Source of the DNA: Escherichia coli
GTDB taxonomy: Bacteria > Pseudomonadota > Gammaproteobacteria > Enterobacterales > Enterobacteriaceae
DNA length: 64,000 nucleotides
Assembly (NCBI RefSeq): GCF_011045215.1
Contig: NZ_CP049201.1
Direction: 5' to 3' (one strand)
A program made the position numbers and the translations under genes. Of the stretch, positions 6,311 to 6,371 are shown one piece after another. Below the pieces are notes generated by a model. The model was not told the DNA's origin, did no database searches, and saw only the letters and a list, made by a program, of their open reading frames with translations. Every line of letters begins with the position of its first letter. Within the stretch, counting starts at the first letter, position 1.

Positions 6311-6371
6311 CTTCATACTGTGATGTCATACTATTGATGTCATAAAGTGAAGTCATAAGGACATGTCATGA
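6311..6371 (+). repeat. Five tandem direct repeats of a TGTCATA-like core at 13-14 bp phase, upstream of the HicA-like gene
   Basis: Cores cttcatac, tgtcatac, tgtcataa, agtcataa, tgtcatga start at 6311, 6324, 6338, 6351 and 6364. Confidence 0.7.

Follow-up and report, generated by a model that had tools for sequence, protein, structure and literature searches.

Phased TGAnnTCA boxes directly upstream of a class 4 hicAB module in Escherichia coli: a putative HicB autoregulatory operator

Between the transporter gene yhhJ and a hicAB toxin-antitoxin (TA) module, the E. coli sequence NZ_CP049201.1 carries a short run of similar motifs that follow one another with a regular phase. The whole 64,000-nt stretch of this contig that was analysed is called the window here, and all positions refer to it. 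The questions raised by the locus are what the unit of the repeat is, which gene it belongs to and which protein reads it. An earlier note, made from the sequence of the window, described five copies of a TGTCATA-type core and considered them as an operator array for the HicB-like antitoxin, as an iteron-like array or as a remnant of the acquisition of an island.

The array and the operon that it precedes

The stretch that extends from about 6307/6308 to 6370/6371 reads cTTGACTTCAtactgTGATGTCAtactatTGATGTCAtaaagTGAAGTCAtaaggACATGTCAtg. The cores picked out in the earlier note (TTCATA at 6312, GTCATA at 6325, 6339 and 6352, and GTCATG at 6365) are all there, at a spacing of 13/14/13/13, and Tandem Repeats Finder applied to the array returns a period of 13. 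The claim that such phasing is not accidental is borne out as well. Four of the 21 TGAnnTCA sites of the 64-kb window are found inside 50 nt at the array, and more than two such sites per 50 nt occurred in none of 300 first-order Markov windows. The pair TGAMKTCA-N5-TGAMKTCA, with at most two mismatches, is matched in the entire 64 kb at 6308 and 6335 only, the expected number of matches being 0.17. The array is thus real and far beyond chance.

The unit and the number of copies given in the earlier note have to be revised. The exact heptamer TGTCATA occurs only twice. The better unit is an 8-bp pseudo-palindrome, TGAnnTCA, the frame of which lies 4 nt to the left of TGTCATA. Four good boxes, starting 13/14/13 bp apart, are present in this frame (Table 1). 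The ideal form of the box consensus is the palindrome TGACGTCA, and in the two middle boxes of E. coli both central bases differ from the consensus. As for the fifth copy, it is weak and hinges on T6366; a C occupies this position in the other full-array E. coli sequences examined, and none of the full-array genomes listed matches above 99.0%. No counterpart of the fifth copy was found in the upstream regions of other genera that were compared. Judged from these alignments, the fifth copy is probably not a functional box, and it is not counted as one below.

Boxes 1 and 4 are reverse complements of each other, which gives the array an imperfect inverted repeat of 21 nt (6308-6328/6335-6355, 71% complementary). 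The inverted repeat was considered as a feature in its own right and rejected, as its dyad is not kept in other genera, where the boxes are usually all direct. A scan of positions 6150-7100 against Rfam (E <= 1) identified no RNA family.

Table 1. Features of the yhhJ-hicAB region, with positions in the window
Feature	Positions	Strand	Description
yhhJ	5171..6295	+	ABC transporter permease; upstream neighbour; stop codon TAA at 6293-6295; from the PGAP annotation of the 99.8%-identical strain PapM-32-1
Predicted -35	6307..6312	+	TTGACT; one T and then nucleotides 1-5 of box 1; consensus scan
Box 1	6308..6315	+	TGACTTCA; equal to the family consensus; invariant in the alignment of nikR-linked Escherichia, Citrobacter and Klebsiella sequences
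Box 2	6321..6328	+	TGATGTCA; degenerate; within the promoter spacer; specific to the Escherichia/Citrobacter/Klebsiella clade
Predicted -10	6329..6334	+	TACTAT; between boxes 2 and 3; consensus scan
Box 3	6335..6342	+	TGATGTCA; begins right after the -10; expected over the transcription start
Box 4	6348..6355	+	TGAAGTCA; just 5' of the Shine-Dalgarno sequence
Fifth copy	6361..6368	+	ACATGTCA; weak; spans the Shine-Dalgarno sequence to the start codon
hicA	6368..6642	+	PF07927 (HicA_toxin); pseudogene here; 1-nt deletion after 6456 gives ORFs 6368-6466 and 6454-6642
hicB	6639..6998	+	119 aa; ATGA overlap with hicA; PF05534 at 3.5e-15; intact

The position of the array relative to the toxin gene also has to be corrected. 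It had been placed about 85 bp before the GTG start of a HicA-like ORF, which is wrong. The intact allele of strain E6474 encodes a HicA of 91 amino acids that matches PF07927 and has its start at the equivalent of ATG 6368. Compared with this allele, the hicA gene of the window lacks one G after 6456, and the same gene is labelled 'frameshifted' by PGAP in PapM-32-1. On the evidence of the allele comparison, the true start of hicA is ATG 6368, which makes the array abut hicA directly, and the ORF beginning with GTG at 6454 is an artefact of the 1-nt deletion. The hicB gene of the window strain is intact despite the frameshift in hicA. The protein records for HicB are WP_000593554/555, and intact HicA has the record WP_001259388.1.

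The product of hicB appears to be composed of two parts. The N-terminal part has a HicB (partial RNase H / dsRBD-like) fold, and the C-terminal part resembles the ribbon-helix-helix (RHH) domain of Arc, with the β-strand K79-T-F-T-L-R-Y-P-E87. The Pfam families Arc and CopG_antitoxin match HicB residues 76-116 weakly. A profile of 27 HicB homologues aligns at its C-terminus with Arc and AmrZ and gives weak matches to RHH proteins in the PDB, where a search with the HicB sequence alone produced no match. In the AF2 model (pLDDT 83), β-strands and a helix are followed by a two-helix C-terminal region. The folds that fit this model best are HicB of Burkholderia pseudomallei (6g26), HicB3 of Yersinia pestis (4p7d) and 6u0i, with Arc for the C-terminal part. 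HicB structures rank first when the model is compared with the PDB by Foldseek, with weak E-values of 0.02-0.1, because the RHH of the monomer is extended in the AF2 model. No NCBIfam family was obtained for the two hicA fragments and hicB. The PF05534 match, the Arc-like RHH profile and the AF2 model indicate that the operon preceded by the boxes encodes an antitoxin with a DNA-binding domain. With the toxin gene first and a HicB that carries an RHH, the module falls into class 4 of the hicAB scheme of PMC10865869.

The boxes overlap a predicted promoter. The combination TTGACT-16-TACTAT is the sole sigma-70-like match that the consensus scan finds upstream of hicA; it is a consensus match only, at 9 of 12 positions, and matches of such quality are not rare. 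Relative to this promoter, the -35 is in box 1, box 2 is in the spacer, and box 3, which follows the -10 directly, contains the predicted transcription start (about 6341). The predicted start site is followed by box 4 and then by the Shine-Dalgarno sequence AAGGA (6357-6361), which is part of the 12 nt separating the end of box 4 from the ATG of hicA. A similar relationship is seen in most of the 41 distinct hicAB upstream regions compared: the -35 of the best promoter-like pair is inside a box in 37 of them, and a box begins on the final base of the -10 in 30 and directly after the -10 in 5, the window included.

Distribution and conservation of the boxes

The TA pair is present together with the array in 2,070 of 5,426 complete E. 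coli genomes (about 38%), and O157:H7 strains are among the full-array genomes listed. In E. coli without the TA pair (K-12 and about 3,300 others), the homology stops exactly at the stop codon of yhhJ, at 6295 of the window, and the TA-less intergenic sequences of K-12 and CU39ES-1 contain no boxes. In TA-less strains a REP-like palindromic sequence, e.g. aggccggataaggcgt..., is found right after the yhhJ stop, in place of the hicAB cassette (3097-3190 and 2597-2700 of two such loci).

The interval between yhhJ and nikR is a variable hotspot, for which at least four configurations are seen. In the window and in PapM-32-1, yhhJ is followed by hicAB and a sugar island; in E6474 and 13P460A, by hicAB and nikR without the island; in CU39ES-1, by the sugar island, with hicAB and the boxes both absent; and in K-12 and UTAK-15, by ISEc1-RhsB. 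The sugar island of the window lies 3' of hicB on the - strand (7048-9707 and beyond), and its genes encode a class II aldolase, an HPr-like protein, an FGGY kinase and a galactitol-type PTS IIC. The array goes where the TA pair goes, whether or not the sugar island is next to it. This is the outcome of the search across E. coli genomes that the earlier note had proposed, and the array in strains devoid of the TA pair, named there as evidence against an operator, was not encountered.

The carriers have two common forms of the array: all four boxes are present in 1,285 genomes, and in about 770 a 14-bp deletion leaves three. The deletion (6321-6334) lies between exact 10-bp direct repeats, TGATGTCATA, and removes one box; the shortened allele keeps a promoter-like TTGACT-16-TAAAGT. 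The same 14-bp deletion is accompanied by a normal hicA start in Escherichia sp. E1V33. At the normal start of hicA, ATG-TAA is read in three of the four 3-box sequences sampled (E. coli 13P460A, KBN10P04869 and F2_81, at 3091-3172 of the first locus and 695-776 of the other two), and for these genes the PGAP annotation has a 76-aa product that begins at a CTG. The sequences thus suggest that the toxin is crippled in the 3-box lineage too. In the Klebsiella pneumoniae replicon CP052389.1 (1085-1203 of the locus), hicA is gone and the array stands directly before an orphan hicB next to nikR; by its sequence, this is a case in which the candidate operator is kept with the antitoxin after loss of the toxin.

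HicB homologues are common in Enterobacterales, and the same boxes are found far beyond E. coli. A scan of one genome per species, in which hicA was located by tblastn and the upstream region was read in each case, gave 49 loci, nearly every one of which carries TGACTTCA, its reverse complement TGAAGTCA or the palindrome TGACGTCA. At 42 Enterobacterales hicAB loci, the 120 nt that precede hicA contain 21.8 strict boxes (TGAMKTCA) per kb, as compared with 0.07 per kb (14 boxes) in the remaining 214 kb. In an unbiased count of 8-mers, TGACTTCA comes first, being present in all 37 distinct non-Escherichia upstream regions with a 628-fold enrichment. The linkage of the boxes to hicAB is strict. 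The gene yhhJ is the neighbour in the Escherichia and Citrobacter loci only, the sequences that precede the boxes are unrelated from one genus to another, and the spacers between the boxes are A/T-rich and not conserved.

The boxes are also fixed in position. Their modal positions relative to the ATG are -71, -58, -32 and -19, and successive boxes of the 42 loci are spaced by 13 (35 times) or 26 (16 times). The usual layout consists of two pairs, each of 8+5+8 bp, which flank the -10 and are separated by a 26-bp gap. The E. coli layout of four contiguous boxes departs from this 2+2 arrangement: in the Escherichia/Citrobacter/Klebsiella clade, the distal box is absent and a degenerate box is found in the spacer, giving the contiguous 13/14/13 array. 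The TGACTTCA and TGAAGTCA orientations are both found at the same box position, as a reader with two-fold symmetry would allow. The dyad symmetry expected of a site for a dimeric reader is evident in the TGA-nn-TCA frame and in the perfect palindrome TGACGTCA of the paralogues. As the hicAB loci are related by descent, part of this conservation could be inherited and not selected, but the alignments provide a counterweight, in that the spacers and flanks have diverged completely and the boxes have not.

The sequence of the box changes when the presumed DNA-reading strand of HicB changes. The strand KTFTLRYPE is invariant in the 27 aligned HicB homologues, which are 58-82% identical. In Salmonella IncFII plasmids (HicB identity 50-52%), the strand is KSFTLRYP, and 2+2 TGACGTCA boxes occur in the same architecture. 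The same architecture, with 2+2 TGACGTCA/TGACACCA boxes, is found at a second E. coli locus, flhA-yafL, where HicB is 43% identical and the strand reads KRLTLRVP. This flhA-yafL/dinJ paralogue was seen in E. coli TUM18781 (region 790-925 of its locus); if both hicAB modules share one genome, the two HicBs could cross-regulate. More distant HicBs, of 34-38% identity, come from plasmid records. Their strands are GKFNTRI in Acinetobacter, GRFNVRI in Vitreoscilla and GKVSTRL in an Enterobacter plasmid. Instead of TGAnnTCA boxes, all three have upstream inverted repeats with a GGTA(C/T) core, namely TAGTACCA-cgtta-TGGTACTA, TAGTACTA-aatat-TGGTACTG and the 25-bp palindrome AATGGTATCAAaagTTGATACCATT, respectively. 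On the plasmids of this distant clade, a single inverted pair precedes hicA by about 25-50 nt. Acinetobacter and Vitreoscilla, two of the three distant cases, again have their two 8-mers 13 bp apart, in an 8+5+8 arrangement. Retention of this geometry with a different box hints that the geometry is fixed by the HicB tetramer. The boxes thus co-occur with the TA module in any genomic context and co-vary with its antitoxin, and the change of the box sequence with the reading strand is the strongest available argument for HicB as the reader. The array that stands before the orphan hicB of K. pneumoniae provides another.

A candidate HicB operator and the alternatives to it

These observations suggest that the repeats represent a putative operator through which HicB regulates its own hicAB operon, a reading to which a probability of about 0.85 is assigned from the comparison of sequences. 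The proposal of an operator array for the antitoxin is therefore the part of the earlier note that gains strong support, as the boxes travel with hicAB, overlap its predicted promoter and track the HicB strand.

It is possible to describe how such an operator would work. One RHH dimer of HicB, the gene of which lies 270 bp downstream, would read each 8-bp box. A pair of boxes, 13 bp from centre to centre, would be bound by one HicB tetramer with its two RHH modules, and the 13-bp spacing within the pairs thus fits one tetramer per pair. Occupying the -35, the spacer, the predicted start and the leader, bound HicB would exclude RNA polymerase and repress its own operon. By analogy with the HicAB systems that have been studied, an excess of HicA might loosen HicB from the DNA, leading to derepression of the operon. 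Because hicA is frameshifted in the window strain, only the negative autoregulation by HicB would remain there. A step of 13 bp does not correspond to a whole helical turn, which makes it hard to see how cooperative binding would be arranged. Searches of open-access papers turned up no experiments on binding, footprints, reporter expression or the transcription start, either for this module or for a close homologue.

The boxes might instead be read by a trans-acting host factor of the Enterobacterales, maybe a global regulator that couples hicAB to physiology. Sites for host factors do exist at studied hicAB promoters, namely CRP-S at P1 of E. coli K-12 and at PhicAB of B. pseudomallei (PMC11594946). 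A factor that serves the host would have to be reconciled with a box that is at background elsewhere (the 14 copies in 214 kb of flanks), with the lack of any other pair in the 64-kb window, with the movement of the boxes together with hicAB onto plasmids and into unrelated chromosomal contexts, and with a motif that changes when the β-strand of HicB does. To our knowledge, no enterobacterial regulator has a TGACTTCA-N5-TGACTTCA consensus, and a host reader is considered quite improbable. It is very improbable that the array arose merely through replication slippage at the -35-like TTGACT, or through its duplication, with no binding role or with the role of redundant promoter elements. The same 8-mer is kept at four fixed positions across genera while the spacers have diverged, boxes also occur downstream of the -10 and in inverted orientation, and the paralogues have the perfect palindrome TGACGTCA. 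What speaks for slippage is that box 1 doubles as the predicted -35 and that the 14-bp indel of the E. coli population is flanked by the exact 10-bp repeat TGATGTCATA, as is typical of such events; slippage accounts for the indel, and not for boxes that are fixed and conserved from genus to genus and in part inverted.

An iteron-like replication element, or a recombination scar left by the acquisition of the island or of the TA cassette, is barely conceivable. The array does lie right at the boundary (6295/6296) where the homology with TA-less strains ends, in a hotspot with differing cargo (RhsB/ISEc1, the sugar island, hicAB). Nothing was found in favour of iterons: the array is on the chromosome, where it separates yhhJ from hicA, the repeated unit measures 13 bp, the boxes always stand upstream of hicA, and neither the ORF list nor the annotations show a rep gene, an integrase or an origin in the vicinity. 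The remnant of an island boundary or att site, which the earlier note had offered, is contradicted by the independent occurrence of array and island, with the island and no boxes in CU39ES-1 and the boxes and no island in E6474 and 13P460A. Furthermore, boxes are found upstream of hicA at dozens of unrelated insertion sites, at a distance that is fixed to the start codon and not to the end of the cassette.

Two known operators were compared with the array and rejected. The pho box is composed of direct 7-bp CTGTCAT repeats with an 11-bp period and replaces the -35. The resemblance to it pointed out in the earlier note holds for the degenerate middle boxes of E. coli and goes no further, as the period here is 13-14 bp and the orthologous boxes, TGACTTCA, are without the TGTCA core. 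The operator of NikR has the inverted half-sites GTATGA-N16-TCATAC. The hexamer TCATAC occurs twice in the array (6313-6318 and 6327-6332), both times in direct orientation and with no GTATGA partner, and was judged to be a coincidence. The nikR gene is the neighbour at this position in many strains.

The autoregulatory operator can be extended into a more general speculation, which as a whole is thought unlikely. RHH-type HicBs might share an operator grammar of 8-bp boxes with 13-bp centres, which would be set by the geometry of the tetramer and kept across boxes of the TGACGTCA and GTACCA types. The four-box array of E. coli might then nucleate a higher-order assembly of HicB, and the 4-/3-box polymorphism might set heritable levels of expression. 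If this were true, the combination of three boxes with a lost hicA start would represent a route by which antitoxin and operator outlive the toxin.

The autoregulatory operator itself reveals no new mechanism. It is an element of an ordinary kind with a previously undescribed motif; nothing on the TGACTTCA/TGACGTCA motif, the pairing of boxes at 13 bp or the yhhJ-nikR module was found in searches of open-access papers. The analysis provides a concrete, testable candidate operator for the widespread, unstudied class 4 hicAB family of Enterobacterales, which is defined by the consensus TGACTTCA, by the 13-bp pairs and by the constant placement of the boxes with respect to the -35 and -10. A further result is the revised gene model, with the hicA start at 6368 and a pseudogene in the window strain. 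With its natural 4-box, 3-box and toxin-inactivated alleles, the E. coli population lends itself to studies of what tunes the autoregulation of a TA module and what lets an orphan antitoxin survive.

Comparison with known HicAB and RHH operators

The RHH-type HicBs of Y. pestis and B. pseudomallei are tetramers with two RHH modules (PMC11594946), which bind inverted repeats in their promoters and act as repressors (PMC11594946; PMC10865869). Release of HicB by excess HicA has been described for K-12, for B. pseudomallei and, probably, for Y. pestis (PMC11594946; PMC10865869). The identity of the present HicB to the closest studied cases is 11-16%.

The operator hicO of E. coli K-12 is an inverted repeat in the promoter region, through which HicB acts as a repressor, and excess HicA derepresses (Turnbull and Gerdes 2017; PMC11594946; PMC10865869). 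The K-12 module is a member of the same TA family and is governed by the same autoregulatory logic. However, its HicB is of the helix-turn-helix type (class 3) and it has two promoters, whereas the module described here is of class 4, with an RHH. The two occupy different loci, and the module at yhhJ-nikR is absent from K-12.

The Y. pestis HicA3-HicB3 system is closer in organization. According to the summary of Bibi-Triki et al. 2014 in PMC11594946, hicA is preceded by a single promoter with the operators BS1 and BS2, of which one overlaps the -10, and HicB alone represses. In both systems hicA comes before hicB, and HicB combines a HicB fold at its N-terminus with an RHH at its C-terminus; the HicB3 structure 4p7d is one of the best fits to the AF2 model. 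The sequence of HicB3 is only about 15% identical and is not matched by sequence search. Its sites, as described in that summary, are two 15-bp inverted repeats, in contrast to the four 8-bp boxes with a 13-bp phase found here. The HicB tetramer of B. pseudomallei binds a single palindrome that overlaps the predicted -10, and excess HicA remodels HicB so that the DNA is released (Winter et al. 2018; PDB 6g26; PMC11594946). This HicB is also of the RHH type and provides the best fold match, 6g26. It differs in its sequence (11% identity) and in having a single palindrome where a phased array of several boxes is found here.

The C-terminus of HicB aligns with Arc, FNLRWP of Arc corresponding to FTLRYP here. 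The arrangement predicted for the array, with several dimers on adjacent short sites that overlap the promoter, is that of the multi-dimer RHH operators (P22 Arc/Mnt, CopG, the metboxes of MetJ and the omega heptads). The Arc operator is 21 bp long, and a pair of boxes here spans the same 21 bp. The centres of neighbouring sites are about 11 bp apart for Arc, 8 bp for MetJ and 7 bp for omega, unlike the 13 bp of the present boxes. RHH dimers of the Arc-type class are free, whereas those of HicB would be tethered to one another via the N-terminal HicB domain.
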